A stretch of DNA of 64,000 nt from Endomicrobiales bacterium (GTDB lineage: Bacteria > Elusimicrobiota > Endomicrobiia > Endomicrobiales > JAFGGC01): positions 135,796 to 199,795 of the forward strand of contig JAFGGC010000013.1 of NCBI GenBank assembly GCA_016930715.1. Direction: 5' to 3'. The notes under the pieces were generated by a model that did not search any database, was not told where the DNA came from, and worked only from the letters and a program-made list of their open reading frames with translations. Shown piece after piece: positions 7,298 through 51,584 of the stretch (its first letter is position 1; each line of letters begins with the position of its first letter). The translations under genes and the position numbers were made by a program.

Positions 7298-7304
7298 ATT
7301 ATTT

Positions 7305-34530: not shown

Positions 34531-37500
34531 ATGACTGAAAAACCCGTCCATGGAAAGATGCTCATAAACGAGCAATATCTGACCGTAAAGAAAATCGGCC
34601 AGGGCGGTTTCGGAGTAGTCTGGCGGGCATACGATTTCAGCCTCAAGAATTACGTCGCGGTCAAAGAGCTTCTTCAGGAATACAGCGAGGCGAAGTATGT
34701 CGAGATGTTCTATAAAGAAGCTCTCATCGCGAAAAATATCATACACGACAACATTGTCCGCGTGCAGCATTTCTGGAAGGGCTCCAACGGGGCCTTTTAC
34801 ATCACGATGGACTACGTGTCGGGTACCGACCTGGAAAACCTCCTCAAACTCTGCAATAAAGTCGAAGTCAGGCTTCCGTGGGAACTTGTAGTACTCATAG
34901 CCGGAAGCGCCCTCAAAGCCCTTGATTACGCCAACAGGATCGCCAAGGACGTGATAACCGGCAAACCCTACGGCATCGTATACAGGGACATCTCTCCGGG
35001 AAACATCCTCATTTCGTTCGAAGGCAACGTGAAACTCAGCGATTTTGGCGTGGCAAAGACCGCTGAAGAGATGGCCGACGCCGCCAAGAAAAGGATAGTT
35101 GCCGGGAAGTACGCGTATATGTCCCCCGAGCAGATGAGGGGTGAGCCGGACGTCGACCATCGTTCCGACGTTTTTTCCATCGGGGTCGTGCTTTTCGAAA
35201 TGCTGGCCGGCAGGCCGCTTTATTCCGGTGACACGACCCAGATAAGGGAACAGGTACTGAACGAAAAATTCGATCCCAATCTGCTCACGAGCATCGGGAT
35301 ACCCGACGACCTTGCCATAATAGTCCAAAAGGCGCTCGAGAAGGACAAAGAGCTCAGATACGAAAAAGCCATCGAGATGTTCAGGGACCTGAGGCGCCTT
35401 CTCAAGGGCAAGGAGACGGAGGAGCTCGCCCAGGACCTTTCCGTGTTCATAGCGAGGAATATGAACGAGGAAATCTCCAAGGAAAACGAGTTTGCCGAAA
35501 GCATCAGACAGTTGAACTTAACCGAAATAAAAGGCGATCCCAAAGTAACGAAAATAACCTGCAAGGATTTCATAGTAGGGGATCTCACCGCGGATGTTCC
35601 GCACGAGGAAGCGCCGCCGGCGCCGCAGTATCAGCCGAGCGGGCCGGCTCCTTCCCAGCCCCTTCAGCCGCCTCCGCCAGAAGAGCCGAAGGCGCAACAG
35701 GAACAGCCCGTTCCCGAAGACAAGGAAAAATCAGCCGAACCGTACTATCCCGAGCCGATAGGCGAACAACCGCAGGCGGCCGCGCCTTCCGAGCCGCAAA
35801 AAGCCAAATCCGTCCATAAACCCGAGCCCGAACCCGAACCGAAATACGAACCGCCGCCGCAGCCGCAACAGCCCCAGCAGGCGGCTGCGCCCATACAGCA
35901 GTATTATCCCGCAAAGCAGTCTCAACAGCCTTCCTACGATACGTACTATCCTTCACACCCTTCTCCAAGCGAAGAGAAGGGGAAAACGGTTTTTGAGGAA
36001 GTCGGCGACTGGCTCGTCAACAAGTTTAAGGTATACAAAAAACGCCTGATAAGGGTCACGATGGCCCTGATATTTTTCGCGATTCTTTTTACCGTGGCCG
36101 ATACTTTCTTGAGGATAACCCCGGTGGGCAGCAGGATATATTCCATGCTCTATCCGCCGGACGTGGTGATCACAACGGTGCCTCCCGGAGCCACGGTAAC
36201 GGTTAAAACAAGGGACGGGAAACCCGTCATTTCGAACGCCGATTCGTCCAGGCCCATAGAGCTGAGGAAGGTTTTGCCCAGGACCTACGTGCTTACCGCT
36301 ATGAAGGACGGATTCAAGACTGTCGAGCGCATAATCAAGATAGAGGAGCAGACCGGCGGCAAAAAAATGCAGCAGAACATAGAGGTAACCTTCGATTTCG
36401 CGCTTGAGATCGATTCGATGCCTCCGGGCGCCGAGGTTTACGTCGACGGAAATAAATTCAACGTCACGCCCTGCAGGGGGGAGTTTGTGGCTGGCGAACA
36501 CACGATAAAGCTCGCGATGAAGGGTTTTGAGGATCTGGGCTCAACGGCGAAAGAAGCGAAAGCCGGGCAGTGCAACATCGATTTCACGAGGCCTTCTCCC
36601 GATGAAGCGTTCGGAGGGATAGATCCCAAGTACTGGAAGTACGACGTTATAAATACCGAGTCGGGGGCGGTATTCAAGGTCACGGGGCACCTTTACAAAT
36701 TCTACAATCTCGGATCGGTGCCCAAGGACTGTGTCGTTCACATCGAGGGAGAGAGCCAGCCGAGAGGGAACACTCCTTTAAGGACCCCGCTAAAGGCGGG
36801 AACCTACAAGATAAGGTTCCTTGACTCGAGCGGCAAGTACCAGCAGACCACGAGACCGGTCACCTGCGACCAGAATTCAAATCAGAACATAAGCGTTTAC
36901 CTCAATAAGTGGGTGACGTTCAAAGTCCGCTCAAAAGAGCATCCGAACGAATCTTTCGTTACGAACCTGAAAATAAAAGGCGCCGGTATGAGTGTATCAA
37001 AAGAGATATCAACGAACAAACCAATAAGAATGGCCCTGCCGGTCACGACCTATGAAGTCATTTTCGAGGGCGACAAGGAATATAAAACGCTTGCCTTGAA
37101 GGTGAATATTGCCGGCAGGAGCCTGATACTGGGAGAACTGGAATACGAGAATTCCATTTTAACGGTCAACGTCAAGGATGAATCGACGAAAAAAGCGATA
37201 GAAGACGCGTATGTCTGGCTGGGGTCCAAGATAGCGGGCAAAACGAATTCTCAGGGCGCTTTTGAAACGGAAGTGCTTCACGGCACCACGAGCGTTAGGA
37301 TAGTGGCCAAGGGCTACATTGACAAGACCGTGGAAAAAGCGATAAAAGTCCGGAAAGAGCAGGTGGATATCGAACTGGCTCCGGAAAGAGTCGAGATTCC
37401 GGGCATTTCGACCGCTCCGCCCGTGGCGCCAACCGGCTATGGTTTACCGGGTCAAAAAACGATATTTTCTCCCGTGCCGGCCTCCGAAAAACCTTCCTAC

Positions 37501-37755
37501 GAAGCGCAGACTCCCGGACGGCGGCCCCGCACGCCGGGCGGTTCGCAGCCGGATAGCTATCAGCAGCCTCAGGCGCAGCCGCAGTACCAGCAGCCGCAAT
37601 ATCAGCCGCCCGCGCCCGTTCCAAGGCAGCCGGCGACTTCACCCGGCGGCCAGCAGGTTATAGTGTGCCCCAACTGCGGCAAGGAATATGTTATAACGGG
37701 GCCGAAGAAACCGAGGTTTTGCACGAACTGCGGAAGGCCTTTTAATTTAAGATAA
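34531..37755 (+). CDS. Membrane Ser/Thr protein kinase: Hanks kinase, P/Q-rich linker, TM, PEGA-type beta-sandwich array, P/Q-rich tail and C-terminal zinc ribbon
   Basis: Kinase motifs are GQGGFGVVW, VAVKEL, YRDISPGNIL, DFGVAK and YMSPEQ. The TM is VTMALIFFAILFTVADTFL. PEGA-like units include PPGATVTVKT and MPPGAEVYVDGNKFNVTPC. The C-terminus is CPNCGKEY...FCTNCGRPF. ATG at 34531 is chosen over the ORF-track TTG at 34438, which coincides with the -35 box. Confidence 0.85.
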   Translation: MTEKPVHGKMLINEQYLTVKKIGQGGFGVVWRAYDFSLKNYVAVKELLQEYSEAKYVEMFYKEALIAKNIIHDNIVRVQHFWKGSNGAFYITMDYVSGTDLENLLKLCNKVEVRLPWELVVLIAGSALKALDYANRIAKDVITGKPYGIVYRDISPGNILISFEGNVKLSDFGVAKTAEEMADAAKKRIVAGKYAYMSPEQMRGEPDVDHRSDVFSIGVVLFEMLAGRPLYSGDTTQIREQVLNEKFDPNLLTSIGIPDDLAIIVQKALEKDKELRYEKAIEMFRDLRRLLKGKETEELAQDLSVFIARNMNEEISKENEFAESIRQLNLTEIKGDPKVTKITCKDFIVGDLTADVPHEEAPPAPQYQPSGPAPSQPLQPPPPEEPKAQQEQPVPEDKEKSAEPYYPEPIGEQPQAAAPSEPQKAKSVHKPEPEPEPKYEPPPQPQQPQQAAAPIQQYYPAKQSQQPSYDTYYPSHPSPSEEKGKTVFEEVGDWLVNKFKVYKKRLIRVTMALIFFAILFTVADTFLRITPVGSRIYSMLYPPDVVITTVPPGATVTVKTRDGKPVISNADSSRPIELRKVLPRTYVLTAMKDGFKTVERIIKIEEQTGGKKMQQNIEVTFDFALEIDSMPPGAEVYVDGNKFNVTPCRGEFVAGEHTIKLAMKGFEDLGSTAKEAKAGQCNIDFTRPSPDEAFGGIDPKYWKYDVINTESGAVFKVTGHLYKFYNLGSVPKDCVVHIEGESQPRGNTPLRTPLKAGTYKIRFLDSSGKYQQTTRPVTCDQNSNQNISVYLNKWVTFKVRSKEHPNESFVTNLKIKGAGMSVSKEISTNKPIRMALPVTTYEVIFEGDKEYKTLALKVNIAGRSLILGELEYENSILTVNVKDESTKKAIEDAYVWLGSKIAGKTNSQGAFETEVLHGTTSVRIVAKGYIDKTVEKAIKVRKEQVDIELAPERVEIPGISTAPPVAPTGYGLPGQKTIFSPVPASEKPSYEAQTPGRRPRTPGGSQPDSYQQPQAQPQYQQPQYQPPAPVPRQPATSPGGQQVIVCPNCGKEYVITGPKKPRFCTNCGRPFNLR

Positions 37756-37817
37756 AAAAATTGGATGCCCTGCTTGACCCGGTTCCGGCCGGAACGGTCG
37801 GCGGGGGGAGGATACAG

Positions 37818-38915
37818 ATGGACGGAATACCGATAAAACGTATTTTAATTGCGTCGTTGTTTCTATTCGCGGTTTCGCTGAGCTTCGCGGTGATGCCCAG
37901 GCAGATGAATTACCAGGGGAAGCTGACCGACGATACCGGAGCGCCACTGAACGGGACCTATAATTTCACCTTCACGCTGTATGACGCCAGCGGTTCGACC
38001 TGGACGGAGACTCAAAACGGAATTACTGTGGAGAACGGTCTTTACAACGTTCAGCTTGGAAGCGTCAACAATGCCCTGGCTGACCTTCCCTTCAACACCA
38101 CGTACTTTCTGGAGATCAAGGTGGAAAGCGAGACCCTCTCGCCGAGGCAGATGCTCACTGTGAGCCCGTATTCCTTCAGGAGCAGGTATTCCGATTTCGC
38201 GTCGAGTCCTGGCCAACACGCGAGCACTCACCTTTCCGGTGGCACGGACCCGTTGTCCGGCGTTCTCGCGCCGACCGTCATCGTCAGTTCGGTCGCCTTG
38301 AATTCAATTCACAACGCTCAAGTAAACGGTAGTGCCGCCATCGCGATAAGCAAGCTGGCGTCGTCCGGCACGCTCGGGGCCGGTGTCGTCGCGAGTTCCA
38401 TAGCGGTCAATGCGGTTCATCCGCGGGCCGTGAGGAACGGCGAGTATGACCTTGCCACCAGCACGCTGAATATTGCCGTGATTAACGCGTACATGGTCAA
38501 AGCTTCAAGTTTCTACTCTACGGGCGCCGACCTTGCCGAGATATATCCGTCAATGGAGTTCCTCGAGGCCGGGGATATCGTTTCCATGAGCGAGGAGCGC
38601 GGATTCAACGTGCTCAACGTCGAGAAATCAAAAGTCCCGTACGACCCCAAAGTTCTGGGAGTGGTGTCGACCAAGCCGGGCCAGGTGCTCGGCGCCGGGG
38701 AAAAAGGATATCCCATAGCTCTTGCCGGCAGAGTGCCCGTCAAGGTCACGGCCGAAAACGGGGCGATCGAACCCGGCGACCTGATAACGACTTCGTCAAT
38801 GCCGGGTTATGGAATGAAAGCGACACAGGATAAGCGCGGAACGGTTATCGGCAAGGCGCTCGAATCGCACGATTTCGGCACGAAAAAGATACTTGTTTTC
38901 ATTATGCTAAGATGA
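37818..38915 (+). CDS. Secreted tail-fibre-like protein with possible peptidase-G2/IMC-type C-terminal domain
   Basis: Signal/TM segment ILIASLFLFAVSLSFA. The N-terminal module MNYQGKLTDDTGAPLNGTYNFTFTLYDASGSTWTETQNGITVENGLYNVQLG resembles modules seen in tail-fibre-domain proteins. The C-terminus (ADLAEIYPS...GDIVS...KVLGVVSTKPG...ALAGRVPVKV...PGDLITTS) resembles the autoproteolytic chaperone domain of phage appendage proteins. ATG at 37818 follows GGGAGG. Confidence 0.5.
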   Translation: MDGIPIKRILIASLFLFAVSLSFAVMPRQMNYQGKLTDDTGAPLNGTYNFTFTLYDASGSTWTETQNGITVENGLYNVQLGSVNNALADLPFNTTYFLEIKVESETLSPRQMLTVSPYSFRSRYSDFASSPGQHASTHLSGGTDPLSGVLAPTVIVSSVALNSIHNAQVNGSAAIAISKLASSGTLGAGVVASSIAVNAVHPRAVRNGEYDLATSTLNIAVINAYMVKASSFYSTGADLAEIYPSMEFLEAGDIVSMSEERGFNVLNVEKSKVPYDPKVLGVVSTKPGQVLGAGEKGYPIALAGRVPVKVTAENGAIEPGDLITTSSMPGYGMKATQDKRGTVIGKALESHDFGTKKILVFIMLR

Positions 38916-40120
38916 ACGGTAAAAAACTGTTTGTACTATTCGCCGCTGTGTTTGTTTTTTCGGCCGGGGCCTCGTCCGGAACCGTACAGCCTTTTTATTC
39001 CTCAAGCAACGGCTACGGAAAAGGCTCGTCATCTTCGTACGGAAACACCTCCAACGTGGGGCAGCTCGCCGGAGACTCGCTGAGTCTCAATTACAGGAGC
39101 TACGGCGGTTATCTTGCCTCGCAGGTCGTTGTGATAGATTTTTCAATGACCTTTTTCGACGAATCGCCGGCCGCCAGCGAATGGCAGGAGACCACGGACG
39201 TCACGGCCAGGGTCACGGTGTACGTTTCCACGGGAAACACGATAGCCAGCGTCAAATACAGGATATCGAACTCCGGCCCCGACGAATCAAGTTTCTTCGC
39301 CTGGCAGTCGGACGCGGTCGTGGACACAGTGATAGACGCGACGAAGACGAGGTACAGGGTATCGATTCCAAACTCGGCCGGACAAAGCCTCGCAGAAGGA
39401 GAGAACAATTACATACAGTGGCAGGTGACGAACAACGCGAACTCCAAGGCCCAGTCTGGCATTTACAGGATACGCGTCAGGAGCAACGACGCCCCGTCTA
39501 TCACGATAACGCAGCCGGACGCGAAAAGCAATTTCACCTCGATGTCGCCCCGCGTGGAAGCCACTATCACCGACGAGCACGGGGGAGTGGACGCCGGCAG
39601 CATCGGCGTCGGTATAAGCAGGTCGAATGGGACATCCGTGGCGTCGCTAAATTCGTCCGGCGTGCCGTCCATTTTTGACGCTTCGACGGGTAAGCTGTCT
39701 TGTACCTTTACGGGAGTCTCGCTTACCGCCGACGCTTCATACACGTTGACGGTGACCGCTTCGGACACTAAGGGCAGGTCGTCTTCCAGCACTATGACCT
39801 TTATTCCGAAATCCGGGGCCATAGCCGACCTTGTTCCTTACCCTTCGCCTTTCGACCCCAAGGCGGAGCCGATAAAGATAAGATACGTTCTGACTAAGAG
39901 ATCGGACGTTTCGATAAGGATATATGATATGAGCGGCCGTCTGGTGAGATCGATTGTTGACAATGACGTCAGGGAGGCCGGGTTGTCCGAAGATGAGTGG
40001 CGCGGCATCAATTACGCCGGGGAAGATATGGCCAACGGCGTGTACCTTTGCGAGCTTGTCGCTAAAGACGAGGACGGCGAACATCGTTCCCATACTGCCT
40101 TGGCGATTTTCGGTAAATAG
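38912..40120 (+). CDS. Secreted Ig-like repeat protein with FlgD-Ig / T9SS-CTD-like C-terminal domain
   Basis: Signal peptide, then an Ig-like unit (APSITITQPD...ATITDEHGGVDAGSI...YTLTVTASDTKG). The C-terminus is PYPSPFDPKAEPIKIRYVL...VSIRIYDMSGRLVRSIV...GEDMANGVYLCELVA. ATGA overlap with the upstream gene. Confidence 0.6.
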   Translation: MNGKKLFVLFAAVFVFSAGASSGTVQPFYSSSNGYGKGSSSSYGNTSNVGQLAGDSLSLNYRSYGGYLASQVVVIDFSMTFFDESPAASEWQETTDVTARVTVYVSTGNTIASVKYRISNSGPDESSFFAWQSDAVVDTVIDATKTRYRVSIPNSAGQSLAEGENNYIQWQVTNNANSKAQSGIYRIRVRSNDAPSITITQPDAKSNFTSMSPRVEATITDEHGGVDAGSIGVGISRSNGTSVASLNSSGVPSIFDASTGKLSCTFTGVSLTADASYTLTVTASDTKGRSSSSTMTFIPKSGAIADLVPYPSPFDPKAEPIKIRYVLTKRSDVSIRIYDMSGRLVRSIVDNDVREAGLSEDEWRGINYAGEDMANGVYLCELVAKDEDGEHRSHTALAIFGK

Positions 40121-40123
40121 AAA

Positions 40124-41167
40124 ATGAAAAAGATTCTGCTGGCTGCGACATTCACGGTTTTCCTGGCGAATCAGGTTTTCGGAGGAACGGGCGCCGCCGC
40201 TTTTCTGGATGTTGGCGTGGGGGCGAGGGCGCTGGGAATGGGCGGGGCTTTCGTGTCCGTGGCCGACGACCCGTCCACCGTTTACTGGAATCCGGCGGGC
40301 TTGGGAAGGCTCAACAGGTTCAGCTTCACGGCAATGAGCCAGTCGCTCGCGTCTTCTAAATGGGAAACGCTCGAGGATATTACGCCGAGTTACCAGTTTT
40401 TCGCGTTGACTATCCCGGTGAATACTTTCGGCCTGCCGTTCATAGGCAACGAAACCAACACTTTCGGAATCGGGATGATTTCCTGCGGGCTTGACTCGAT
40501 TCCGTACACGTACCTGGGATCTTCCGGTCAGATAGTAAGGGAAACTTTCAAGGATACGGAGAACGCCTATTTCATTTCTTACGGGGTGCCGATCTTTGAC
40601 GAAAGCGCCGAAGGGCTGTATGCCGGGACGACGCTGAAATTCATTACTCAGAAATTTTCAAAGATCGACGGAGCGAGTGCGACCGGTTACGATATGGATT
40701 TTGGGTTCATGTACAATTCAATGAATTTCAACATCGCGATGATGGTGGAGCGCGGTGCCTGCATGAGCTGGGCCAACGGCCGGTCCGACACGGCGCCTAC
40801 GACCGCAAAACTCGGCGTTTCTAATAAATTCTGGTTCAAGCAGTCGTACTCCATACTTGCGGTGGGGGATCTCGTGCAGAGACAGAACAGCCCGCTGACA
40901 CTTAATGCCGGCGCGGAATTCGGCTATGAAAGGGAATCGGGGAACAGAAGGTTGAAATTCGAGGGAATCTTCGCGCGCCTCGGGGTCGAAGGGTACGCGC
41001 TTGAAAACAGATACGGTTACGCGAGCAAGATAAACGAAGATATTAATCTAACGGCCGGTCTCGGATTGAGGCTGGTGACGTTCGGTTACAGCATCGATCT
41101 TGATTACGCGTTCGGCAGCTACAGGCTGGGCGACAAGAACAGGATCTCGCTGAGCCTTTATTTTTAG
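40124..41167 (+). CDS. PorV/PorQ-like (FadL-fold, UPF0164-like) outer-membrane beta-barrel
   Basis: Signal peptide, then AAFLDVGVGARALGMGGAFVSVADDPSTVYWNPAGLGRL. Alternating beta-strand pattern with a terminal aromatic (SLSLYF). Only 3 nt separate it from the upstream gene. Confidence 0.6.
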   Translation: MKKILLAATFTVFLANQVFGGTGAAAFLDVGVGARALGMGGAFVSVADDPSTVYWNPAGLGRLNRFSFTAMSQSLASSKWETLEDITPSYQFFALTIPVNTFGLPFIGNETNTFGIGMISCGLDSIPYTYLGSSGQIVRETFKDTENAYFISYGVPIFDESAEGLYAGTTLKFITQKFSKIDGASATGYDMDFGFMYNSMNFNIAMMVERGACMSWANGRSDTAPTTAKLGVSNKFWFKQSYSILAVGDLVQRQNSPLTLNAGAEFGYERESGNRRLKFEGIFARLGVEGYALENRYGYASKINEDINLTAGLGLRLVTFGYSIDLDYAFGSYRLGDKNRISLSLYF

Positions 41168-41178
41168 GTAAGTATCTT

Positions 41179-41291
41179 GATTACACAGATTTGCTGAGAC
41201 GATTACACAGATAAAAACGAACCGAAAGATGAAAAAAAGTAGGATTATTAGGTTTTAATCTGTGTAATCTATGTATTGAATCTGTGCAATC
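41179..41291. repeat. Repeat family 1, copy c
   Basis: gattacacagatt at 41179-41191 and gattacacagat at 41201-41212. aatctgtgtaatc at 41257-41269 and aatctgtgcaatc at 41279-41291. Confidence 0.85.
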
Positions 41292-41312
41292 AGATTTTAA
41301 AAAGAGGTATTT

Positions 41313-42107
41313 ATGAAAAGAGAGAATCTTATTAAGAAACTGCCGCCGGCGGTAACGGCTTTCTTTATGGTTGTCTCGTTTGTCGGGGCTGCTGATGCCC
41401 AGCCCAAGAAGGACGTTTCTGATCCCGTCCTTCAGGAGGTTATATCTTCCTTCAGTTCGCGGATGCCGAGGTTCATCGGAAAACACGGGGACGATATTTT
41501 TGTGGCGGACGGTCCTGTGAACAGGGGTAGCCTGCTTTACGCGCTCTATGAATATGACCGTTCGCTGAGGCTGCCCAGGAAAGATTATGTGAGCAAGCTC
41601 GAATTCGAGGAGTTCAGGCAGAAAATCGAGAATGACATGGCGCTATCGTCAAGGTCGAGAGCGAAGCAATCGGCTTCGGGAAAACTCGATATAATGGAAG
41701 TGATAAACGATCTTCAACCGAACATGCCCATCCTTCTGGACAACTCCCTAAACAATTCAAAAGTTTTCAATCAGCTGAAGGCCCAGGTCCGGTCAGGAGG
41801 AGGCGGTGGCGATGTAGCAGAACTTGAACGGAGGATCTCGAGGCTGGAGGGTGCTCCTTCGAGCGCCTCGGGGTCCAGGTATTCCGCTTCCGGGGCGGAA
41901 ATATCCGACTTGAGATCCAGGATAAAAAAACTGGAAGCCAACGAGAAAGACATAGCTAAACTCGAACGCAGGGTTGACGAGTTGTCGAGAAGAGATGGCG
42001 GCGGCAAATCTTCCGGGGCCGTTTCTGAGGTAAAAGGTTACACGTCTTCTTTGGTCAAGATAAGCCTGGGCTTGAGCATGGTGGCGGCGCTTTTCATAGC
42101 GAGATAA
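41313..42107 (+). CDS. Hypothetical secreted coiled-coil protein with C-terminal TM anchor
   Basis: Signal peptide (VTAFFMVVSFVGAADA), heptad-like segments (VAELERRISRLEG, ISDLRSRIKKLEANEKDIAKLERRVDELSRR) and a C-terminal TM (ISLGLSMVAALFIA). I recognised no family. Confidence 0.5.
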   Translation: MKRENLIKKLPPAVTAFFMVVSFVGAADAQPKKDVSDPVLQEVISSFSSRMPRFIGKHGDDIFVADGPVNRGSLLYALYEYDRSLRLPRKDYVSKLEFEEFRQKIENDMALSSRSRAKQSASGKLDIMEVINDLQPNMPILLDNSLNNSKVFNQLKAQVRSGGGGGDVAELERRISRLEGAPSSASGSRYSASGAEISDLRSRIKKLEANEKDIAKLERRVDELSRRDGGGKSSGAVSEVKGYTSSLVKISLGLSMVAALFIAR

Positions 42108-42216: not shown

Positions 42217-44466
42217 ATGCCGAGGATCACGGTAAAGAAAAGAGCCGAAGTGATAGCAGAATACAGGATTCCGAAAAGGCCCATCGTGAACATCGGGTCG
42301 GGGAAAGGTAACGAAATAGTCATTCAGGATAAAAATATCTCTGAATACCATTGCGTAATACAGAAAAAAGAAGGCGGCTATGAAGTAAAGGACAAGAACA
42401 CGCTCACCGGCACAAGGATAAACGACAAGCCGGTTACCGTCAGGGACATTCAGTTCGGCGACGTTGTCAACATAGGAGTTCATTCTCTTGTCTTCCGGTC
42501 GCTGAAAAGCTCCAGGACCGCGGAGGCGGCGGGCGCCGAAGAGAAAGCCGTGGTGGAAGCGCAGAAGATATACTATCTGCTCGGCATATACGGGAAGTTC
42601 GAAGGCAGGAAATACGAGCTTGGCGAGGGAGAGACATACATCGGGCGCGAGAATATAGCGCCCAAAGGCATGGACAACGACGTGGTCCTCGCCGGCGATA
42701 TGACAGTTTCCAAGGGCCACGCGAAAATAACGTGCGGCCCCAATCAGTGCATGATAATGGATGTCGGGAGCACGGGCGGTGTTGCGGTCAACGGCATCAA
42801 GGTAGGCCAGCTCAACGAAATAAACATCCGGCCCGGCGACGAGGTGGCTATCGGCCGAACGATATTCAGGTTTGTCGAGGAAGGCAGGGAAGACTACAGC
42901 GTACCCAAGAATTACGGCATCTTTCTTTTGAAGATCAAGCAGCCCGTTACCATACTCACGACCCTGGCCGTGCTCGGTTTCTCCGGTTTTCTTGCCTACA
43001 CGGGCATCAACGGCGTCATGGTCCTCAACGACAAGCCGAAAAAAGTGGATATCGACATAAACAGGTACTGGTCGCCCGAAGAAAACGTGGTGAAGACCGC
43101 TATGTCCGAATACGACATCTCCTGCACTCCGGCCATTGGCGACATCAACAACGACGGCAAGAACGATATCGTGTACCTGAATTCCGCCGGCAGCCTTCTT
43201 GCCTGGGACGGCGGGAAGGGTTCTCTTCTGTGGAGGCCGTCGGAGATATTCAATTCCGGCATGACTTCTCCGGCCCTGTACGATATGAACAAGGACGGAA
43301 TAAAGGACATCATAGTGCTATCGGACACTTCAATGCTCTATATCATCGACGGGCAGTCCGGAGGAATAATAAAAAGGGAAATGCTGGGGGGCGTGATCGC
43401 GGAATCCTCCCCCGCGATAGGGGACCTCGACGGCGACGGCAAACCGGACGTCGCGGTCTGTTCCGAGGAAGGCATGGTGCATTTCGTGTACGCGCCCGGT
43501 TTCGAGACCAATATGGGGAAATACACGGAGTTCGTGGAAGGGCCCATATACGCGTCTCCGGTAATAATCGGCACGAAAGAAATATCGCCCATGGTGGTCG
43601 TGTGCTCGAACGCCAGCAAGGTGTATTTCTTTGACGGCAAAGCGAGGAGCAAAAAGACGGTTGACCTCATAGAGAAGACGAACAAGGCCCATCTCATTGC
43701 GGCTCCCCCGGGGGTGGGGGATTTGAACGGCGACGGCATCCCGGAAGTTGTCGTTGTTTCTAACGTTCCTCAATACGTGTCGAGCATAGATATTTCGAAA
43801 TTCAGCGTGAACTGGACGTATTTCGTGGAGCCGGTGCCGCCCGCCGGTCTCAAGCATTCGGCTTCGCCCGCCGTGGCAGACTGCGACGGCGACGGTCTGA
43901 AAGACGTCATTGTTCCTTCGGCCAACGGCAGGATCTACTGCCTTAAAGGCAAAACCGGTTATCCTTCGGGAGAAATGCTTTGGAGCCTTGAGATACCTGG
44001 CGCCGGACGTTTCCTTTCTTCTCCGTCCGTGTGCGATTTTGACAAGAACGGAACGGCTGATTTCGTGCTCGGAGGGGAAGACGGTTCGATATACCTTCTA
44101 AGAAACGTTCCAAGCCGCAAGGAAATCGAAGTTTTCGCGACTCTTAAGGCCAGCAACGCTCCGATCACTTCGTCCGGAGTAATAGGGGACGTGAACGGGG
44201 ACGGCAAGATTGACGTGGTATGCTCAAATGTCGTGAACACCGTGCAGGTATTAAACACTAACGTAAAAACTTTCGGCGATAACCTCATCTGGCCCATGTA
44301 TCTCGGCAATATCGCCCGCTCGGGCCAGATGGCTCCGGCGAAGAATATCTGGATATACGTGTCGATGATCTTCGGGGGCGTGTTGCTGGCGTTATTGTTG
44401 TTTGTTTCGAGGTCGACGGTGAAGGCGAAGAAGATGCAGAAAAGACCAAAGGTATCGTATTTATGA
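42217..44466 (+). CDS. Two FHA domains, TM, seven FG-GAP/VCBS-like repeats (beta-propeller), C-terminal TM
   Basis: FHA1 is IVNIGSGKGNEIVIQDKNISEYHCVI...GTRINDKPV. FHA2 is TYIGRENI...VSKGHAKI...VNGIKV. The seven repeats are listed in the finding for this gene. ATG at 42217 is preceded by AGGAG at 42205-42209. Confidence 0.8.
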   Translation: MPRITVKKRAEVIAEYRIPKRPIVNIGSGKGNEIVIQDKNISEYHCVIQKKEGGYEVKDKNTLTGTRINDKPVTVRDIQFGDVVNIGVHSLVFRSLKSSRTAEAAGAEEKAVVEAQKIYYLLGIYGKFEGRKYELGEGETYIGRENIAPKGMDNDVVLAGDMTVSKGHAKITCGPNQCMIMDVGSTGGVAVNGIKVGQLNEINIRPGDEVAIGRTIFRFVEEGREDYSVPKNYGIFLLKIKQPVTILTTLAVLGFSGFLAYTGINGVMVLNDKPKKVDIDINRYWSPEENVVKTAMSEYDISCTPAIGDINNDGKNDIVYLNSAGSLLAWDGGKGSLLWRPSEIFNSGMTSPALYDMNKDGIKDIIVLSDTSMLYIIDGQSGGIIKREMLGGVIAESSPAIGDLDGDGKPDVAVCSEEGMVHFVYAPGFETNMGKYTEFVEGPIYASPVIIGTKEISPMVVVCSNASKVYFFDGKARSKKTVDLIEKTNKAHLIAAPPGVGDLNGDGIPEVVVVSNVPQYVSSIDISKFSVNWTYFVEPVPPAGLKHSASPAVADCDGDGLKDVIVPSANGRIYCLKGKTGYPSGEMLWSLEIPGAGRFLSSPSVCDFDKNGTADFVLGGEDGSIYLLRNVPSRKEIEVFATLKASNAPITSSGVIGDVNGDGKIDVVCSNVVNTVQVLNTNVKTFGDNLIWPMYLGNIARSGQMAPAKNIWIYVSMIFGGVLLALLLFVSRSTVKAKKMQKRPKVSYL

Positions 44467-45881
44467 TAATAGAATCGGCCGCAAAAACACACGTGGGAAT
44501 GAAGAGGACCGAGAACCAGGACTCCTACGGGATATCAAAGAGCAGGAATATCTTCTTTGTCTGCGACGGCATGGGAGGCGGAGCGGCTGGAGACTTTGCC
44601 AGCAGGTGCGCGGTGGAAGTAATGATAAAGGCCCTTGATCTCGTCGGTACGCAGGACACAGAAGCTATTTTTAAGGATACGAAACCGAACATACCCAAGG
44701 AGCTGCTTTTGACCCCTGCCGTCATAAGGCTTGCGAACAGGGCTCTCCATAATTTCACGGTGAAATATTCCGGGCTCTCCGGCATGGGAACGACCGTGGT
44801 CTCGGCCGCGTTTGACAAGAACGTTAACAAGATCCATATCTACAACGTCGGAGACAGCAGGTTATACAGGCTTCGGAACGGAGTCCTGGAGCAGTTGACT
44901 AAAGACCATTCCAAGATCAGCGAGCTCATCGAGCAGGGCAAGATGAAGGAGTCGGACGTTAAGACTGCCGAGATACAGAGCATGATAACCCGGGCGCTCG
45001 GGACCGGCTCAAATGTAAAAATAGATTTTCGTACGGAGTACGTGAAACCCGGAGACCTGTTCATGATGTGCTCGGACGGGCTTAACGGAGAACTTGACGA
45101 CAACGCGATACGTTCGATAATGATAGCCAACAAGAACGATATGGAAGCTCTGTGCGCCAGGCTGATCGAAGCCGCTAATGCGGCCGGGGGGCGTGATAAT
45201 ACCACCGTCGTCGCTATGAGAGAGCCGGAAGAGCACAAGAGCACTCTTCCCTACGATACCAGATCAGGCAGTACGGTGACGATAGACGCGGAAACCGAAT
45301 CCGAATCGCAGCAGGAAGACAAAACCCTCAAGAAGATCATGGAAAAGGTGCAGTTAAAGGTTCCAAAGGCGGCAATGGAAAAGAATATTTTTTCAAACCC
45401 GCTTCTTTTGGGAGCCGTGATAGCTTTTTTCGTGATAAGCGTGGGCATGATAGTTTCGAAGATGTCCAGGCCCGTAAAGCAGGAGACGGAGCTTATGGAC
45501 CTCGCGGGCAAGGTCACGGGTCTTGAGATAGACATAAGGACGCCCCTGCCGGAGAACCTGGCGCTTTTCAGGAGGTCCGACGACGTCGTCGCCAAACTTC
45601 AGATGATACAGGACTGGACAAGGCTCAAAGACGCGAATACGACGATGCTCAGGGACGCCGCCGTGATCATCGAGCAAAACGGCGCAGAATGCTTCAAGGG
45701 CGTTATCGAGGATAAACCCATCCAGGCCAAGCTTGACAGGGGAAGTTATCAGGTGAATTTCTTGTATCCGGGTTACAAGGTCATAACTAATAAAATGGAA
45801 ATGAAGGACAGTATATCGATTTCCGTAGAACTTTCGGAAAAGTACAAGCCGCTTTTTGTTTTGATGATTCCGGAAGAATAA
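44463..45881 (+). CDS. Membrane-anchored PP2C-family Ser/Thr phosphatase with extracytoplasmic C-terminal domain
   Basis: RTENQDSYG, FFVCDGMGGGAAGDFAS, GTTVV, NVGDSRLY, MMCSDGL and GRDNTTVV. The TM is LLLGAVIAFFVISVGMIV. The C-terminal beta-rich part of about 130 aa contains YQVNFLYPGYKV. ATGA overlap with the FHA gene. Confidence 0.85.
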   Translation: MIIESAAKTHVGMKRTENQDSYGISKSRNIFFVCDGMGGGAAGDFASRCAVEVMIKALDLVGTQDTEAIFKDTKPNIPKELLLTPAVIRLANRALHNFTVKYSGLSGMGTTVVSAAFDKNVNKIHIYNVGDSRLYRLRNGVLEQLTKDHSKISELIEQGKMKESDVKTAEIQSMITRALGTGSNVKIDFRTEYVKPGDLFMMCSDGLNGELDDNAIRSIMIANKNDMEALCARLIEAANAAGGRDNTTVVAMREPEEHKSTLPYDTRSGSTVTIDAETESESQQEDKTLKKIMEKVQLKVPKAAMEKNIFSNPLLLGAVIAFFVISVGMIVSKMSRPVKQETELMDLAGKVTGLEIDIRTPLPENLALFRRSDDVVAKLQMIQDWTRLKDANTTMLRDAAVIIEQNGAECFKGVIEDKPIQAKLDRGSYQVNFLYPGYKVITNKMEMKDSISISVELSEKYKPLFVLMIPEE

Positions 45882-45898: not shown

Positions 45899-46660
45899 GT
45901 GCCGGACAACAAAGTCAAGGTTTTGATAATAGACGATGATCCTGTCGTGCTTGAAGTGACCGCCGCGGGGCTCGAGACGGACGGTTTTGCGGTTTTTACC
46001 GCCGATGACGGCAAATCCGGCATAGAAAAGGTCAAAAGCGAAAAACCTGACATCATACTCCTTGACCTGAAGCTTCCGGACATAAACGGTTTTGAGGTTA
46101 CGAAGGTGCTCAAGCAGACCGCCGGCGTTTCAGAAATACCCGTGATAATGATAACGGGTGACCGGACGGTGGATATAGACCAGGCTTTTGCCGCGGGCGC
46201 CGACGATTGCATTATAAAACCCATTGATATGGGGTATCTCGTGGACAGGATACGCAAAACCGTCAAGAAAAAATTCAGGGTCCTTCTTGTTGATGATGAC
46301 AGGCAGATAGGGGATATCCTGAAGAACGTCATAATAAAGCAGCAGTTTGAGGCCGAAGTGATCTACGATGGCAGGAAGATATTCGACGTTATAAAGGCGA
46401 ACAGGCCCGACCTGATTCTTCTCGACATATCGCTCCAGATAGGCCCGGACGGCATCGAGCTGTGCCGCCAGCTGAAATCCGAATCTTCCACCAAAAGCAT
46501 CCCCATCATAATGATCACCGCGAACGAGTACTCCGACTCCGTAGAGAAGTGTTTCTCTTACGGCGCCGAAGACTACATATTCAAGCCTTTCAACCTTCCG
46601 GATTTCATACTTAAGATAAAGAAATACATGAAAATGAGCGAACAGCTCGAGAAAAAGTAG
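45899..46660 (+). CDS. Tandem receiver-domain (REC-REC) response regulator without output domain
   Basis: REC1 is KVLIIDDDP...PDIILLDLKLPDING...IPVIMITG. REC2 is RVLLVDDD...PDLILLDISL...IPIIMITA. The GTG start is preceded by GGAGG. Confidence 0.8.
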   Translation: MPDNKVKVLIIDDDPVVLEVTAAGLETDGFAVFTADDGKSGIEKVKSEKPDIILLDLKLPDINGFEVTKVLKQTAGVSEIPVIMITGDRTVDIDQAFAAGADDCIIKPIDMGYLVDRIRKTVKKKFRVLLVDDDRQIGDILKNVIIKQQFEAEVIYDGRKIFDVIKANRPDLILLDISLQIGPDGIELCRQLKSESSTKSIPIIMITANEYSDSVEKCFSYGAEDYIFKPFNLPDFILKIKKYMKMSEQLEKK

Positions 46661-46689: not shown

Positions 46690-48837
46690 ATGAAATATCT
46701 CGGGAGTCCAAGAACTTTAGCGTCGGCGCTTGCCCTTGTGTTGTTGTGCAGGATCATCGCTTTATCGGGTTCCGGGGCTTCCACGGTGTCCTTTCTCAAG
46801 ATTAATCCCGACCCGCAGTCCGAAGCTCTCGGGGGAAGCGTGCTTTCCCTTTCGGCGACGCCGACCGAGATACCTGTCAATCCCGCGCTTTCCGCGTACA
46901 TCTACCAGACTAAATTCGCTTTTTCCAACACATCCCTTGTTTCCGATGTCGAACATATGCACGGAGGGGCGGCCTTGCCGACAGAAATCGGGCATTTCGG
47001 CATCGGGGTGACGAACATCGGCTACGGCACCATGAAGGGTTATGCCGTGGACGCGAGCGAATATTCCATCCCGGAATCAAACGAAATGGCGGTCGTGCTG
47101 AATTATTCACGGGCTTTCAGGAGGTCGGTGCCGGTATACCGCGACTGGGGTGCCGTGGGCGCGAACCTGAAATTCGTGAGAAGCACGCTCGTGGATTATT
47201 CAAGCGACGCGATTGCCCTTGACGTCGGAGGTATACTCAAGGTCCCGGGCGCGAAAGGGCTTTCTGCCGCGCTTGTTTTTTCGAACATCGGGCAGGGCCC
47301 GAGTTTCGTAAAGGAAAGCAACCCTCTGCCGCTGTCGACGGATGTGGGCCTCAGGTACGACAAACCCGAATGGAAGGACGTGTTCGGCGTCGTGAATTTA
47401 AAAAACGATTCTGACGCGACGGCGTTCTCGGTCGGCGCCGGGGTCAGTCCCTTTTATCCGGCAAAGGTCTGGTGCGGATGGAAGGAATCCGAAAAGGCCG
47501 TCGATTCTGGCCTGAGGTTCGGGATGGGGCTCAATATAGGGTACATTAATTTTTCATATTCGTACGTTTTTTATAAAGATTTTTCGCCGGTTCACAGAAT
47601 CGGCATAGATATGGAGCTGGGCGGGTTCAGCGAGCCGAAAATCGCCTATGATTACTATCTCAACTACTATTTTCACAAAGCCAAGCAAAAATACAACAGG
47701 GGGGATTACCTGGCCGCAAGGCGCCTGTTCTCGGACATACTTTCGGTGTATCCCAACCACGAAGCATCCAAGGATTACCTCGAAAGAATCGCTTTTGAGC
47801 TCGACAAGATCGAACAGCAGAAAATGGTCGAAACGGACAGGCTGCTTCGCCGCGCGGAAGTGGCTCTTTTGAGGGACAACATCATACTTGCCAAAAAGTA
47901 TTACACGCGGGTTTTGGATGTGGACCCCGAGAATCAGAGAGCTCGCGAAGGAATGGACAGAATAGACGAAAGGCTGGGGGATTATTCATCCATCGAGGCC
48001 CAGCGCAGGAACAGGGCGAAACTGAACGTGCTTTGGGAGGATGGCTATACGGCCTACGAAAAAGGCGATTATGTCACCGCAAAGGAAAAATTCCAGCAGA
48101 TTCTAATTCTTGATCCCGAGAACGCCGAGGTTGCCAGATACCTCAGCGAGGTCCATGATCAGATATCCAAGGTTTCCTCGCTCCAAACGGAAGCGCTGTA
48201 TCAAAAAGGAGTGGAACTTTTTGACAAGGGGGATTTCGAGGAGGCGGCCAAATATTTCGGCGCGGTGAGCGTCGCCGACCCTGCAAGGGAAGACGCGAAG
48301 CATTACCTGGCCGAGAGTGAAAAGCGCATCGCGGAAAAGGAAAGAAGGGCCGCGTCGGGCGAAACGGAAAAAACCGCGAAAGAGAAACGGGAAGTCGAAA
48401 GCGTCTATTACGACGCCTTCAAACTTTTCGAGAACGAAGACTACGAAAAAGCCATAAGGGGTTTTACTAAATCAAGAGAACTGGCCAGCAAGTACGGCTT
48501 GAAGAAATACGCGGACGACTCGGCAAACTACATAACGGCCGCCAAAAGCGGCGCGGCTAACAAGTACTACAGGTTCGGCGTAGAAAACGAGAAGAAGAAA
48601 GACGAAGAAGCGGCATATGAGTTTTACCAGAAGGCTCTGGAGTTTAACCGCTCGCATATGGAGGCCAGGCAGGCGGCAAGCCGGCTCTCCGACGATCTTT
48701 CGCAGGCGTATTACGAGTCCGGCATGAAATACTACTCAAAGGGAAATATGAGGAAAGCAAGGGAATATTTTAAAAAATCGCTCTACTACAAACCCGGGAA
48801 ACTGGAATCACTAAGGGCGCTTGAGAGGATAAAATAG
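46690..48837 (+). CDS. PorV-like outer-membrane barrel fused to a long TPR/helical C-terminal region
   Basis: The N-terminus FLKINPDPQSEALGGSVLSLSATPTEIPVNPALSAY, followed by about 300 aa of beta pattern, parallels the gene at 40124. The C-terminal region of about 400 aa has TPR-like units (YNRGDYLAARRLFSDILSVYPNH, AYEKGDYVTAKEKFQQILILDPEN, YSKGNMRKAREYFKKSLYYKPG). Confidence 0.55.
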   Translation: MKYLGSPRTLASALALVLLCRIIALSGSGASTVSFLKINPDPQSEALGGSVLSLSATPTEIPVNPALSAYIYQTKFAFSNTSLVSDVEHMHGGAALPTEIGHFGIGVTNIGYGTMKGYAVDASEYSIPESNEMAVVLNYSRAFRRSVPVYRDWGAVGANLKFVRSTLVDYSSDAIALDVGGILKVPGAKGLSAALVFSNIGQGPSFVKESNPLPLSTDVGLRYDKPEWKDVFGVVNLKNDSDATAFSVGAGVSPFYPAKVWCGWKESEKAVDSGLRFGMGLNIGYINFSYSYVFYKDFSPVHRIGIDMELGGFSEPKIAYDYYLNYYFHKAKQKYNRGDYLAARRLFSDILSVYPNHEASKDYLERIAFELDKIEQQKMVETDRLLRRAEVALLRDNIILAKKYYTRVLDVDPENQRAREGMDRIDERLGDYSSIEAQRRNRAKLNVLWEDGYTAYEKGDYVTAKEKFQQILILDPENAEVARYLSEVHDQISKVSSLQTEALYQKGVELFDKGDFEEAAKYFGAVSVADPAREDAKHYLAESEKRIAEKERRAASGETEKTAKEKREVESVYYDAFKLFENEDYEKAIRGFTKSRELASKYGLKKYADDSANYITAAKSGAANKYYRFGVENEKKKDEEAAYEFYQKALEFNRSHMEARQAASRLSDDLSQAYYESGMKYYSKGNMRKAREYFKKSLYYKPGKLESLRALERIK

Positions 48838-49847: not shown

Positions 49848-51584
49848 ATGAAAAATCTGGTATATTCAATTTTTAGGTTTGCGCGGAAGTTCTTCGGGGA
49901 CAGGGTTGCCGGGAAATACCTGTTTTTTCTCGCCGCCGGGATATTGTTCGCGTGGTTGACGCACGGACTTCACGGCCGAATTGCATTGGAAAACGTCAAC
50001 AATAAGGTCGAATTGTGCGTGAACCTGCGCGAAGCCGTTAGCCTGTGCGTCAATACTGGATATCCGCTCAAGGATTTGCTCCAGAGGTTCAGGACCATCG
50101 GCGTGTCGAGCCTGGCACTCAACGAAGAAACGATAGGAAGTCTCGCGTCGGACGAGAGGATAATCTTCTATCCGGCCTCGGAATATATGATGATGCGTCT
50201 GGTGGACTTGATCCCGAGGGCGAGCATTGTGTCATCGGGCGCGATAGCGACGAAGGACAGGCGGCTTTGCGAAGATCTAAAAGCAATCTTACAGACAAGG
50301 TATAAAATAACCGTAAGAACAAGGAAGGCAGGGAGTTTTTACATTATCCTGCCCCGTTCGGGTAAAAGGGAAGTGCCGTCCTTGCCGGTTGACAGGGATA
50401 TGTATGTCGGTTTCTATCACGCCGATTTGAAGATGGCGGGCGATCTGGGGTTCGGAACCGTGCTCGTGCCTGAGAATGAGGGCGACCCGTCGTGGCTTTT
50501 TGAGAATAATGCCGTTGGCAAGTCGGTTCTTCTGTGGGAATCAAACGATGTCTGCGGTTTTCCGGGCAGTGAAGCGGATTTCGGAAGTAAAATGGAGCAA
50601 GCCGGCGTGAACTACGTCGATCTGGAGTTCATAAACAATCCAGGCATGGAAATGCTGAAAACAACGGCTCTTGGCAGGCTCGTCCGGGGGCATACCATAT
50701 CGCAGGCGGAGATGAACAAGAAATACGATACCAATTTCTGGATCTCAAGATGGACACGGGGCGTAAGGGAAAGAAGCATAAGGTTTCTATACCTTCATTT
50801 TTGGGCTCAAAAGACAATCGAAAGCAATCTGCTGTATGTAAGGGAACTTGCGCAAGCGCTCAAAGCCGGGGGATATATCCTGTCCGTGACTCAGCCGCCG
50901 GATTACCCTTTAAGAAAAAGCACGAAAAGCAGAATATACATTTCCCTGGTCGCGGCAGTTTTCGTGCCTCTGGCCGGTCTCTGGCTGTGCCTGAAGACGG
51001 GCAATCCATACAAGGCGTTTTTTTCATATAACTTGACGACTATTGTCGGAGGAACTCTGGTCTCAGTGCTGCTTTTTGACAGGATGCTGATGCAGGGCGC
51101 GGTGAATTTTCCGTACGTCCGCGTGGTAATGCTTATACCTCTGGTGGCCTCGTTTTTTATGTTGTTTCCGAAAGAAGAGATTCGGAATATGCTCTCAAAC
51201 GACGTGAAAGTGCGGCATCTGGCCGTCGGAGCCCTGGCGGTCGTTGTTATGGTCATAATCATGATACGAGCCGGGAACAACAGCGCGGGATGGCTGCAGT
51301 TCGACCAGTTCATCAGGGAAATCACCGAAGACATTTTTATCGTGAGGCCCAGGACGAAAGAGTTCATCTTCGGCCAGCCGCTTCTTTTCGCGGGGTTATA
51401 TTTCAGGAACCCGTGGATGATACTTATTGGCGTCGTGGGCCAGGTCTCAATGGTAAATACCTTTCTGCACGCTCACACGCCGGTAATCGTTTCGCTCCTG
51501 AGGTCGATATACGGTATATTCCTTGGTTTTACGATAGGTTTTATCGGAGTAAAGACGACCGAATGGATCAAAAACAGGCTATGA
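49848..51584 (+). CDS. DUF5693-like polytopic membrane protein
   Basis: One N-terminal TM, a soluble region of about 300 aa, then about 6 C-terminal TMs. The family assignment rests on my recollection that DUF5693 genes sit directly upstream of csaB. Confidence 0.45.
   Translation: MKNLVYSIFRFARKFFGDRVAGKYLFFLAAGILFAWLTHGLHGRIALENVNNKVELCVNLREAVSLCVNTGYPLKDLLQRFRTIGVSSLALNEETIGSLASDERIIFYPASEYMMMRLVDLIPRASIVSSGAIATKDRRLCEDLKAILQTRYKITVRTRKAGSFYIILPRSGKREVPSLPVDRDMYVGFYHADLKMAGDLGFGTVLVPENEGDPSWLFENNAVGKSVLLWESNDVCGFPGSEADFGSKMEQAGVNYVDLEFINNPGMEMLKTTALGRLVRGHTISQAEMNKKYDTNFWISRWTRGVRERSIRFLYLHFWAQKTIESNLLYVRELAQALKAGGYILSVTQPPDYPLRKSTKSRIYISLVAAVFVPLAGLWLCLKTGNPYKAFFSYNLTTIVGGTLVSVLLFDRMLMQGAVNFPYVRVVMLIPLVASFFMLFPKEEIRNMLSNDVKVRHLAVGALAVVVMVIIMIRAGNNSAGWLQFDQFIREITEDIFIVRPRTKEFIFGQPLLFAGLYFRNPWMILIGVVGQVSMVNTFLHAHTPVIVSLLRSIYGIFLGFTIGFIGVKTTEWIKNRL

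Follow-up and report, generated by a model that had tools for sequence, protein, structure and literature searches.

An FHA protein with a predicted eight-bladed propeller in a membrane hairpin, encoded within a conserved kinase/phosphatase gene module of Endomicrobiales

How a phosphothreonine (pThr) reader in the bacterial cytoplasm could be connected to a large propeller on the other side of the membrane is the question raised by one gene in a 64,000-nucleotide stretch of an Endomicrobiales genome (assembly GCA_016930715.1, contig JAFGGC010000013.1, positions 135,796 to 199,795), which is called the window below. The gene encodes an FHA–propeller protein and is located in the neighbourhood of genes for a Hanks-type Ser/Thr kinase and a PP2C phosphatase; bacterial modules of this Hanks-kinase/PP2C/FHA type are known to regulate secretion and the growth of the cell envelope. 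The original prediction, made from the sequence alone, described two FHA domains fused to a seven-repeat, integrin-alpha-like FG-GAP propeller between two transmembrane (TM) helices and proposed an analogue of adhesion signalling. In the present analysis, the propeller was found to have eight blades, and the protein probably acts as a pThr reader or co-receptor that is integral to the membrane and belongs to a three-gene envelope module, which consists of a Hanks kinase with PEGA domains, the FHA–propeller protein and PP2C.

The open reading frame (ORF) at 42217..44466 on the + strand was confirmed and comprises 749 residues counted from ATG. An alternative start, TTG, lies upstream at 42184. 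The ATG at 42217 is backed by an AGGAG sequence a few bases 5' of it, and Met1 is invariant in 32 full-length homologs, in which the N-terminus MPR(L/I)(L/V)(L/V)KK (MPRLLLKK) is kept. Pfam FHA (PF00498) matched with 93 bits over two stretches (residues 25–87 and about 125–222), and Pfam FG-GAP_3 and FG-GAP matched with 110.9 bits (E 4e-32) and 79.4 bits (E 2e-22), respectively, across residues 309–690. These FHA and FG-GAP features are real and far above chance. An AlphaFold2 (AF2) model was computed on a 32-sequence alignment and had a mean predicted local distance difference test (pLDDT) score of 86.9 and a predicted template modelling (pTM) score of 0.70. The proposed arrangement of cytoplasmic FHA–FHA, TM, extracytoplasmic Ca-loop propeller, TM and short basic tail holds, and its parts are as follows, with the basis of each in brackets.

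42217..44466, + strand: whole gene, FHA1–FHA2–TM1–eight-bladed propeller–TM2–basic tail, 749 residues (ORF, domains, homologs, AF2 model)
42217..42501, + strand: FHA1, degenerate, residues 1–95 (Pfam FHA stretch 25–87; alignment to Rv1747 FHA-1, 6cah)
42502..42570, + strand: inter-FHA linker, disordered and non-conserved, residues 96–118 (pLDDT <50 at residues 98–114; mean column conservation 0.18)
42571..42882, + strand: FHA2 with the canonical pThr-reader signature, residues 119–222 (Pfam Yop-YscD_cpl/FHA stretch 125–222)
42943..43008, + strand: TM1, residues 243–264, inside AF2 helix 236–271 (hydropathy, AF2)
43120..44307, + strand: extracytoplasmic eight-bladed beta-propeller, residues 302–697 (blade hidden Markov model, AF2 DSSP, Foldseek)
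43549..43698, + strand: blade 4, degenerate and without a Ca loop, residues 445–494, ASPVIIGTKEISPMVVVCS... (blade hidden Markov model, AF2; 'ASPVI...SP.VVV' conserved in the alignment)
44347..44409, + strand: TM2, residues 711–731, inside AF2 helix 711–741 (hydropathy, AF2)
44410..44463, + strand: predicted cytoplasmic basic tail, residues 732–749, with seven Lys/Arg and no acidic residue (charge count)

The number of blades was examined with a profile hidden Markov model (HMM) and the AF2 model. All seven Ca-type loops quoted in the original prediction were present, each fitting D-x-[DN]-x-[DN]-G-x-x-[DE], and they lay at residues 309, 356, 403, 502, 555, 607 and 658. Their spacing was 47–53 residues, save for a 99-residue gap separating loops 3 and 4. 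The HMM, for which only the seven blades with a Ca loop were taken from each of 32 homologs, detected an eighth repeat in this gap, with an i-E of 9e-6 in the window protein and a detection rate of 32/32 in the homologs. The DSSP assignment of the AF2 model gave eight four-stranded blades, the first strands of which start at residues 306, 353, 400, 449, 499, 552, 604 and 655. Hence, the seven loop-bearing repeats stand, whereas the seven-bladed count does not; the degenerate blade 4 had been overlooked. In a family set of 59 members that takes in distant lineages, eight repeats were detectable in 37, and most of the others had a double-length gap at one undetected repeat.

The fold neighbours of the propeller were searched with Foldseek against the PDB. 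The structure prediction gave a propeller, as had been expected, though one of eight blades that matched E. coli BamB best (E about 1e-14; TMt 0.72–0.80), together with YxaL, chain B of the KICSTOR complex (which we take to be ITFG2) and V. cholerae Bap1. Bap1 was also the best solved sequence relative of the propeller (E 1e-5, phmmer). Both BamB and Bap1 are eight-bladed propellers (PMC3506653, PMC8295476). Four conserved Trp residues of the propeller, W339, W533, W589 and W692, recall the Trp-docking motifs of BamB; in contrast, the BamB family model TIGR03300 scored 23 bits against a cutoff of 285, and no outer-membrane lipoprotein signal is present here. BamB, YxaL and Bap1/RbmC of V. cholerae share the eight-bladed fold but are secreted proteins or lipoproteins, and none of them is bracketed by a pair of TM helices or joined to a signalling domain in the cytoplasm. 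With integrin alpha, the protein shares the FG-GAP signature and the D-x-D-x-D-G-x-x-D Ca loops between blade strands A and B. However, integrin alpha has seven blades and a type I topology, whereas eight blades and a two-TM hairpin without a beta-subunit partner are found here; no integrin alpha chain was among the top 50 Foldseek matches, and the sequence score of integrin alpha-L was not significant (E 0.032, phmmer). Membership in the integrin-alpha family is therefore rejected: the blade count, the nearest folds, the sequence score and the topology all speak against the analogy, and the VWA/beta partner is missing. The FG-GAP repeats were a tempting but wrong basis for integrin homology, which is corrected here.

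The pThr-binding motifs of FHA domains are GR, SxxH and NG (PMC1262709), and the two FHA regions, both beta-sandwiches in the AF2 secondary structure, differ in how many of these residues they keep. FHA2 carries Gly143-Arg144, Ser165 and His168, which correspond to Gly-Arg and Ser-x-x-His. The Gly-Arg and the Ser were invariant in 59/59 family members and the His was kept in 50/59, and FHA2 was the most conserved region of the protein across phyla, far above the propeller surface. FHA1 has Gly27-Ser28 where Gly-Arg is expected, retains Ser42 and His45, and has Thr64 in place of the loop Asn. At position 28, Ser occurred in 38/53 members and Arg in 5/53, so that the Arg was lost in 48/53. Moreover, the family members with a single FHA domain retain FHA2 alone. 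The invariant motifs of FHA2, the Arg loss in FHA1 and the FHA2-only members together point to FHA2 as the family-wide canonical pThr reader and to FHA1 as a degenerate accessory domain. Two FHA domains are thus present, but the double pThr reader that had been proposed is not supported; in the alignment check of the Arg/Ser/His triad, FHA2 kept all three residues, and FHA1 kept Ser and His but not Arg.

The membrane topology was evaluated from the same model and from the sequence. Both hydrophobic segments quoted earlier (residues 243–264 and 711–731) were present and formed long helices in AF2. A signal peptide and a lipobox were looked for in the FHA–propeller protein and neither was found; its N-terminus is an FHA domain. 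The lack of a signal peptide, the two TM segments and the basic C-terminal tail place the propeller outside the cytoplasmic membrane. The predicted N-in/C-in hairpin is the only arrangement consistent with two TM segments, and it appears conserved across the family: in the distant members listed, two TM segments and a basic cluster after TM2 were found, mostly followed by hydrophobic residues. The end of the tail, residues 745–748, was predicted as a short beta-strand (pLDDT about 84). This strand may dock on an FHA domain, because the FHA domains are the sole beta structures on the cytoplasmic side. The envelope of Elusimicrobiota is diderm. The host is presumably diderm as well because the locus encodes PorV/PorQ-type outer-membrane barrels, and the propeller would hence be periplasmic and the protein anchored in the inner membrane.

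The distribution of the protein was explored by homology searches. At least 120 clusters (90% identity) matched over the full length at 37–66% identity. The named full-length matches were all from Elusimicrobiota/Endomicrobia metagenome-assembled genomes (MAGs), except for one labelled Paludibacter sp.; the best named relatives were labelled 'Endomicrobiales bacterium' (54–64% identity), and the homologs were annotated merely as 'FHA domain-containing protein' or 'FG-GAP-like repeat-containing protein'. In a profile search that was exhaustive over 1.84 billion representatives, the same end-to-end architecture was present in at least 60 clusters (50% identity) among the top 150. Three size variants occurred: two FHA domains with a short linker (740–840 residues), two FHA domains with a linker of ~200 residues (850–950 residues) and one FHA domain (630–720 residues). 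Distant named members came from Calditrichota, Desulfarculus and Acidobacteriota. A GTDB scan used patterns biased toward the FHA2 of Elusimicrobiota, and 69/71 checked non-Elusimicrobiota kept loci were unrelated FG-GAP propeller proteins without FHA. No family member from a cultured organism was identified. Literature searches that combined FHA with FG-GAP, PEGA with kinase, and FHA with beta-propeller and PP2C returned no paper describing an FHA–TM–propeller–TM protein. The earlier statement that no characterised member was known agrees with the homolog names and with these searches. Membership in the BamB, GltG, TagH, OdhI, FhaB and EspA families was considered and rejected, with all NCBIfam scores far under their cutoffs, and the protein appears to belong to no curated family tested.

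The genes around the FHA–propeller gene were then compared among loci. Every gene in the window is on the + strand, and the order is M50 peptidase, TrpRS, ScpA, ScpB, kinase, four envelope genes, FHA–propeller, PP2C, REC–REC (two receiver domains), barrel–TPR and GalT-like. The stop codon of the FHA–propeller gene overlaps the start of the PP2C gene by 4 bp (ATGA). The genes that matter for the argument are given below.

34531..37755, + strand: Hanks-type Ser/Thr kinase with one TM segment and, outside, three PEGA domains and one CarboxypepD_reg domain (Pfam, NCBIfam)
37761..42107, + strand: envelope genes separating the kinase and FHA genes, namely a fibre-like protein, a protein similar to FlgD_ig and to the C-terminal domain of the type IX secretion system (T9SS-CTD), a PorV/PorQ-family barrel and a 264-residue protein
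44463..45881, + strand: Stp1-like PP2C with one TM segment (residues 314–332) and an extracytoplasmic C-terminal domain (Stp1_PP2C_phos)
45899–46660, + strand: REC–REC protein, downstream, which travels with the three genes in Endomicrobia (synteny)
46690–48837, + strand: PorV/PorQ-like barrel fused to a long TPR region, 715 residues (barrel 88 bits, cutoff 90), which travels with the three genes in Endomicrobia

The whole block was syntenic in nine other Endomicrobia genomes. In the divergent Elusimicrobiota contig L003, and also in two distant lineages (L084 and L085, with homologs at about 360–395 bits against the family profile), the kinase, FHA–propeller and PP2C genes were directly adjacent. 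The Desulfarculus and Acidobacteriota relatives likewise had PP2C and kinase genes near the FHA–propeller gene, and kinase and PP2C accompanied this gene in every lineage examined. The four envelope genes were present in L001, L004 and L006–L012 and absent in L003, L084, L085 and L087; in L086, merely a 134-residue gene occupied their position. These four genes are lineage-specific and lie outside the core. The adjacency without them in L003, L084 and L085 indicates that the core is the triad of kinase, FHA–propeller and PP2C. Synteny conserved well beyond Endomicrobia therefore supports the earlier suggestion that the protein is functionally linked to the kinase and phosphatase encoded nearby.

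The two enzymes of the triad were examined for the features that such a link would use. The kinase has a TM segment at residues 509–527, a Gly-rich loop, the VAVK Lys and DFG; ahead of the P+1 loop, 'GK' replaces the 'GT' common among Hanks kinases. The Thr in the activation-loop motif AK-T-A-E/D-E was conserved across the seven Elusimicrobiota kinases aligned and is a plausible candidate target of FHA2. The PP2C matched Stp1_PP2C_phos with 213 bits, slightly below the 230-bit cutoff. Its C-terminal domain (residues ~370–472, 45400–45881) was aligned with the kinase PEGA by hhalign at a probability of 80% (E 1.4e-5); Pfam PEGA missed its cutoff on this domain (E 0.036), and BLASTP against the kinase was not significant. 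The domain is probably PEGA-like. The kinase and PP2C may thus share one type of periplasmic module, with the reader carrying the propeller. A separate observation on the kinase is a conserved C-terminal CxxC...CxxC motif resembling a zinc ribbon, which lies after the PEGA domains on the extracytoplasmic side, an odd site for a zinc ribbon.

The mechanism that we infer for a pThr reader or co-receptor would begin with autophosphorylation of the kinase on Thr, for which the activation-loop AK-T-A-E/D-E is the candidate site. FHA2 would dock on this pThr or on another pThr made by the kinase. Docking would bring the propeller next to the PEGA-type domains of the kinase and the phosphatase in the periplasm, so that a phosphorylation-dependent ternary complex would form at the inner membrane, and PP2C would dissolve it. 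The propeller would serve as a platform on which a protein or glycan of the envelope binds, as a ligand or as a partner, and the rigid TM hairpin and the conserved basic tail may couple the periplasmic and cytoplasmic sides. FHA1, which is without the Arg and is missing from single-FHA members, would be an accessory, phospho-independent interaction domain. Either direction of signalling is compatible with the data, outside-in with the propeller as a sensor or inside-out with the propeller as a phospho-regulated scaffold.

Several points weigh against this mechanism. The topology is a prediction from hydropathy, charge and logic, and the putative contact of the tail with an FHA domain was deduced from DSSP and pLDDT. 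The catalytic loop of the kinase reads YRDISPGN, with Ser for the catalytic-loop Lys (HQDISPSN in L084 and L085), so that the activity of the kinase is an assumption. In FHA2, the loop Asn is replaced by Gly187, at a position that is variable in the family. Across phyla, the conservation of the propeller was nearly confined to structural Asp and Trp positions, which does not indicate a single conserved ligand; one universal propeller ligand seems unlikely, since FHA2 far outconserves the propeller surface across phyla. The D-A and B-C loops were modestly more conserved within Elusimicrobiota and not at all so across phyla, and the comparison of the propeller faces supports no claim for a ligand site.

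The symbiont lineage of the family was used to examine what the module is needed for. Endomicrobiellum is an intracellular, genome-reduced lineage (PMC11257099). One 90%-identity family cluster includes a protein of Candidatus Endomicrobiellum cubanum; the contigs examined were those of the cluster's representative and of a 79%-identical relative (L086 and L087, termite-gut Endomicrobium/Endomicrobiellum-type MAGs). Both contigs kept M50–TrpRS–ScpA–ScpB–kinase–FHA-propeller–PP2C–REC–TPR, and the fibre, FlgD_ig and PorV insert was gone. In the propellers of this lineage, the Ca loops had decayed in blades 1, 3, 5, 6 and 8, and FHA2 and the eight-repeat length were kept. The retention of the triad speaks for a function at the core of the cell, with the envelope as its most likely site. 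Furthermore, because the triad is kept in genome-reduced symbionts and lies beside cell-envelope genes, control of envelope growth or homeostasis is more likely than adhesion as the job of the module.

These results bear on the proposal of an integrin-like adhesion receptor, in which the propeller would bind an external or matrix ligand and signal in both directions through pThr reading by the FHA domains. The FG-GAP-type Ca loops, the combination of an ectodomain and a cytoplasmic adaptor within one polypeptide next to a kinase and a phosphatase, the fibre-like protein and PorV-like outer-membrane barrels encoded in the Endomicrobia locus, and a VWA-domain protein beside the FHA–propeller gene of the Desulfarculus relative, which recalls the propeller/VWA pairing of integrins, are all consistent with this proposal. 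However, besides the eight blades and the poor structural and sequence match to integrin alpha, an inner-membrane anchor in a presumed diderm would make the propeller face the periplasm and not the exterior, and no VWA protein was found in the conserved block at 34.4–49.8 kb. The persistence of the triad in intracellular symbionts from which the surface genes have disappeared also argues against adhesion to external surfaces. The inside-out/outside-in adhesion signalling of the original prediction is thus unsupported, and an adhesion receptor is considered highly improbable.

A second explanation is that the protein is an effector and not a sensor, that is, a phospho-regulated periplasmic scaffold, which kinase activity in the cytoplasm would recruit or cluster through FHA2 and which would organise an envelope machine with its BamB-like propeller. 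Its clients could be the export of outer-membrane proteins or surface fibres in Endomicrobia, or peptidoglycan remodelling with FtsX-like, M23 and CtpB proteins. In favour of this, the structures nearest in fold are eight-bladed platforms, among them BamB, which serves the BAM machine as a scaffold. In Endomicrobia, the neighbours include the PorV/PorQ-like barrel, the barrel–TPR fusion and the FlgD_ig/T9SS-CTD-like and fibre-like proteins, and FtsX_ECD-like, M23 and CtpB-like genes lie further downstream in the window and in orthologous loci. As Rv1747 shows, tandem FHA modules can make the behaviour of a membrane protein depend on phosphorylation (PMC8339232). The low score of the BamB family models, the lack of a lipoprotein signal and the inner-membrane anchor stand on the other side. 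Moreover, the surface and outer-membrane genes that are missing from L003, L084, L085 and L087 and replaced by the 134-residue gene in L086 do not represent a universal client; a T9SS-like surface apparatus in this role was rejected because the insert genes occur only in part of Endomicrobia. A scaffold function is therefore regarded as possible but doubtful.

A third explanation would place all the function in the cytoplasm. FHA proteins of the GarA/OdhI type dock on PknB/PknG. Likewise, FHA2 would bind the activation-loop pThr of the kinase and inhibit or stabilise the enzyme, so that the protein would be a regulator or substrate of the kinase, and the propeller would be a ligand-free anchor with a positional role. 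In agreement with this, FHA2 is by far the best conserved part across phyla where the propeller surfaces diverge, FHA2 is intact in the symbionts where the Ca loops decay, and FHA1 and FHA2 resemble the FHA domains of OdhI, GarA and Rv1747 by sequence. Nevertheless, an eight-bladed fold of ~400 residues and its hairpin are kept in 59/59 members examined, reduced genomes included, which would be costly for an anchor, and many propeller loop positions are invariant within Elusimicrobiota. This explanation is very unlikely. A much stronger form of the reading as a pThr reader or co-receptor would make the triad an undescribed class of three-component transmembrane receptor, conserved in Elusimicrobiota and present in at least three other phyla. 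In this receptor, pThr occupancy of FHA2 would be coupled mechanically, by way of the hairpin and a docked C-terminal tail, to the conformation or the partner binding of a Ca-loaded periplasmic propeller. Its bidirectional signalling would have arisen independently of integrins and would control an essential envelope process of Elusimicrobiota; this form is improbable.

The triad was also compared with known systems in which FHA adaptors work with pairs of eukaryotic-like Ser/Thr kinase (eSTK) and PP2C, such as the fhaA-fhaB-pstP-...-pknA-pknB operon of M. tuberculosis and the PpkA/PppA/Fha1 pathway of P. aeruginosa. The mycobacterial FhaA/FhaB(FipA)–PstP–PknA/PknB module resembles the present one in that FHA adaptor genes lie by those of a Hanks kinase and a membrane PP2C, the kinase having extracellular sensors and the phosphatase an extracellular domain, in a chromosomal neighbourhood of housekeeping and cell-envelope genes; FhaB_Rv0019c was the top NCBIfam match of the FHA–propeller protein, at 60 bits and below the cutoff of 125. 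It differs in that the large propeller in the periplasm, flanked by TM helices, is here part of the FHA protein itself, the sensor of the kinase is PEGA here and PASTA there, and no rodA/pbpA is present in the block. The PpkA/PppA/Fha1 pathway, which belongs to the type VI secretion system, and TagH provide a similar triad of writer, eraser and FHA reader at the inner membrane, with a kinase that has a periplasmic domain. However, Fha1 is soluble, the TagH model scored 39.7 against 120 bits, and no type VI secretion genes are present here. The GltG model scored 38 bits against a cutoff of 650, and Glt, type VI and type III secretion genes were not found in the window.

Rv1747, the M. tuberculosis ABC exporter that is associated with the kinase PknF, also has two cytoplasmic FHA domains with a disordered linker, N-terminal to a membrane domain, and FHA1 aligned best to its FHA-1 (6cah, E 2e-7). 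The linker of Rv1747 carries the phospho-acceptor residues T152 and T210 (PMC8339232). By comparison, the linker here is short and non-conserved (0.18), with Thr101 in the window protein and no Thr in some homologs, e.g., P0035; in addition, FHA1 is without the Arg, and the membrane part is a propeller hairpin and not a transporter. The YscD/PrgH proteins of the type III secretion ring share the order of a cytoplasmic FHA fold followed by a TM segment and a periplasmic domain, and Pfam Yop-YscD_cpl matched with 86.8 bits. The FHA domain of YscD is without the pThr-binding residues, whereas FHA2 keeps them, and no ring-building motifs or secretion-system genes were found here. A YscD-like reading of the Yop-YscD_cpl match was accordingly rejected, the match reflecting the FHA fold only. 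To our knowledge, the FHA reader in known Hanks-kinase/PP2C/FHA modules is soluble or minimally anchored. The present eSTK/PP2C/FHA module is new in that its reader holds an eight-bladed propeller with Ca loops in a hairpin on the periplasmic side, and all three partners carry periplasmic domains. The triad spans free-living Elusimicrobiota to genome-reduced intracellular symbionts, with relatives in Calditrichota, Desulfobacterota and Acidobacteriota. If the proposed function is true, it would represent a widespread and unstudied way in which little-known diderm phyla link the state of the periplasm to Ser/Thr phosphorylation.

Additional features were noted among the neighbouring genes. The fibre-like protein has 384 residues here and 701 in L001, with a conserved C-terminal part of ~130 residues, and its N-terminus has a weak resemblance (31 bits, cutoff 60) to the 'mosaic adhesive trimer' fibre proteins of Bdellovibrio. 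The PorV/PorQ-family barrel upstream of the FHA gene scored 90.5 bits (cutoff 90), and the 264-residue protein has a signal peptide and a C-terminal hydrophobic anchor. The receiver protein carries a duplicated receiver domain (REC–REC) here, and its counterparts in other Endomicrobia have one REC. A promoter and terminator scan of 34–50 kb gave counts not above the shuffled expectation and was uninformative. In the Desulfarculus sp. MAG (L015, 12149–14167), a 672-residue VWA-domain protein separates the FHA–FHA–propeller and PP2C genes, followed by a 1267-residue kinase with a canonical HRDIKPDN and TPR repeats; the FG-GAP propeller beside a VWA protein superficially recalls the integrin alpha/beta pairing, in this single lineage only.

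Further away in the window, three tandem paralogous membrane genes at 12170–20168 are TMEM260-like (GT-C glycosyltransferase type, resembling protein O-mannosyltransferases) and have a C-terminal TPR region. A PMT_2 family protein and a GT2 glycosyltransferase are encoded downstream of them, and a BatA-VWA gene is located upstream at 7293–9299. At 49848–52618, a DUF5693 membrane protein and a polysaccharide pyruvyl transferase are flanked by the GalT-like and FtsX_ECD-like genes. These two genes were unmatched in the orthologous Endomicrobia loci by tblastn, and a glycogen-synthase-like glycosyltransferase is present there instead.

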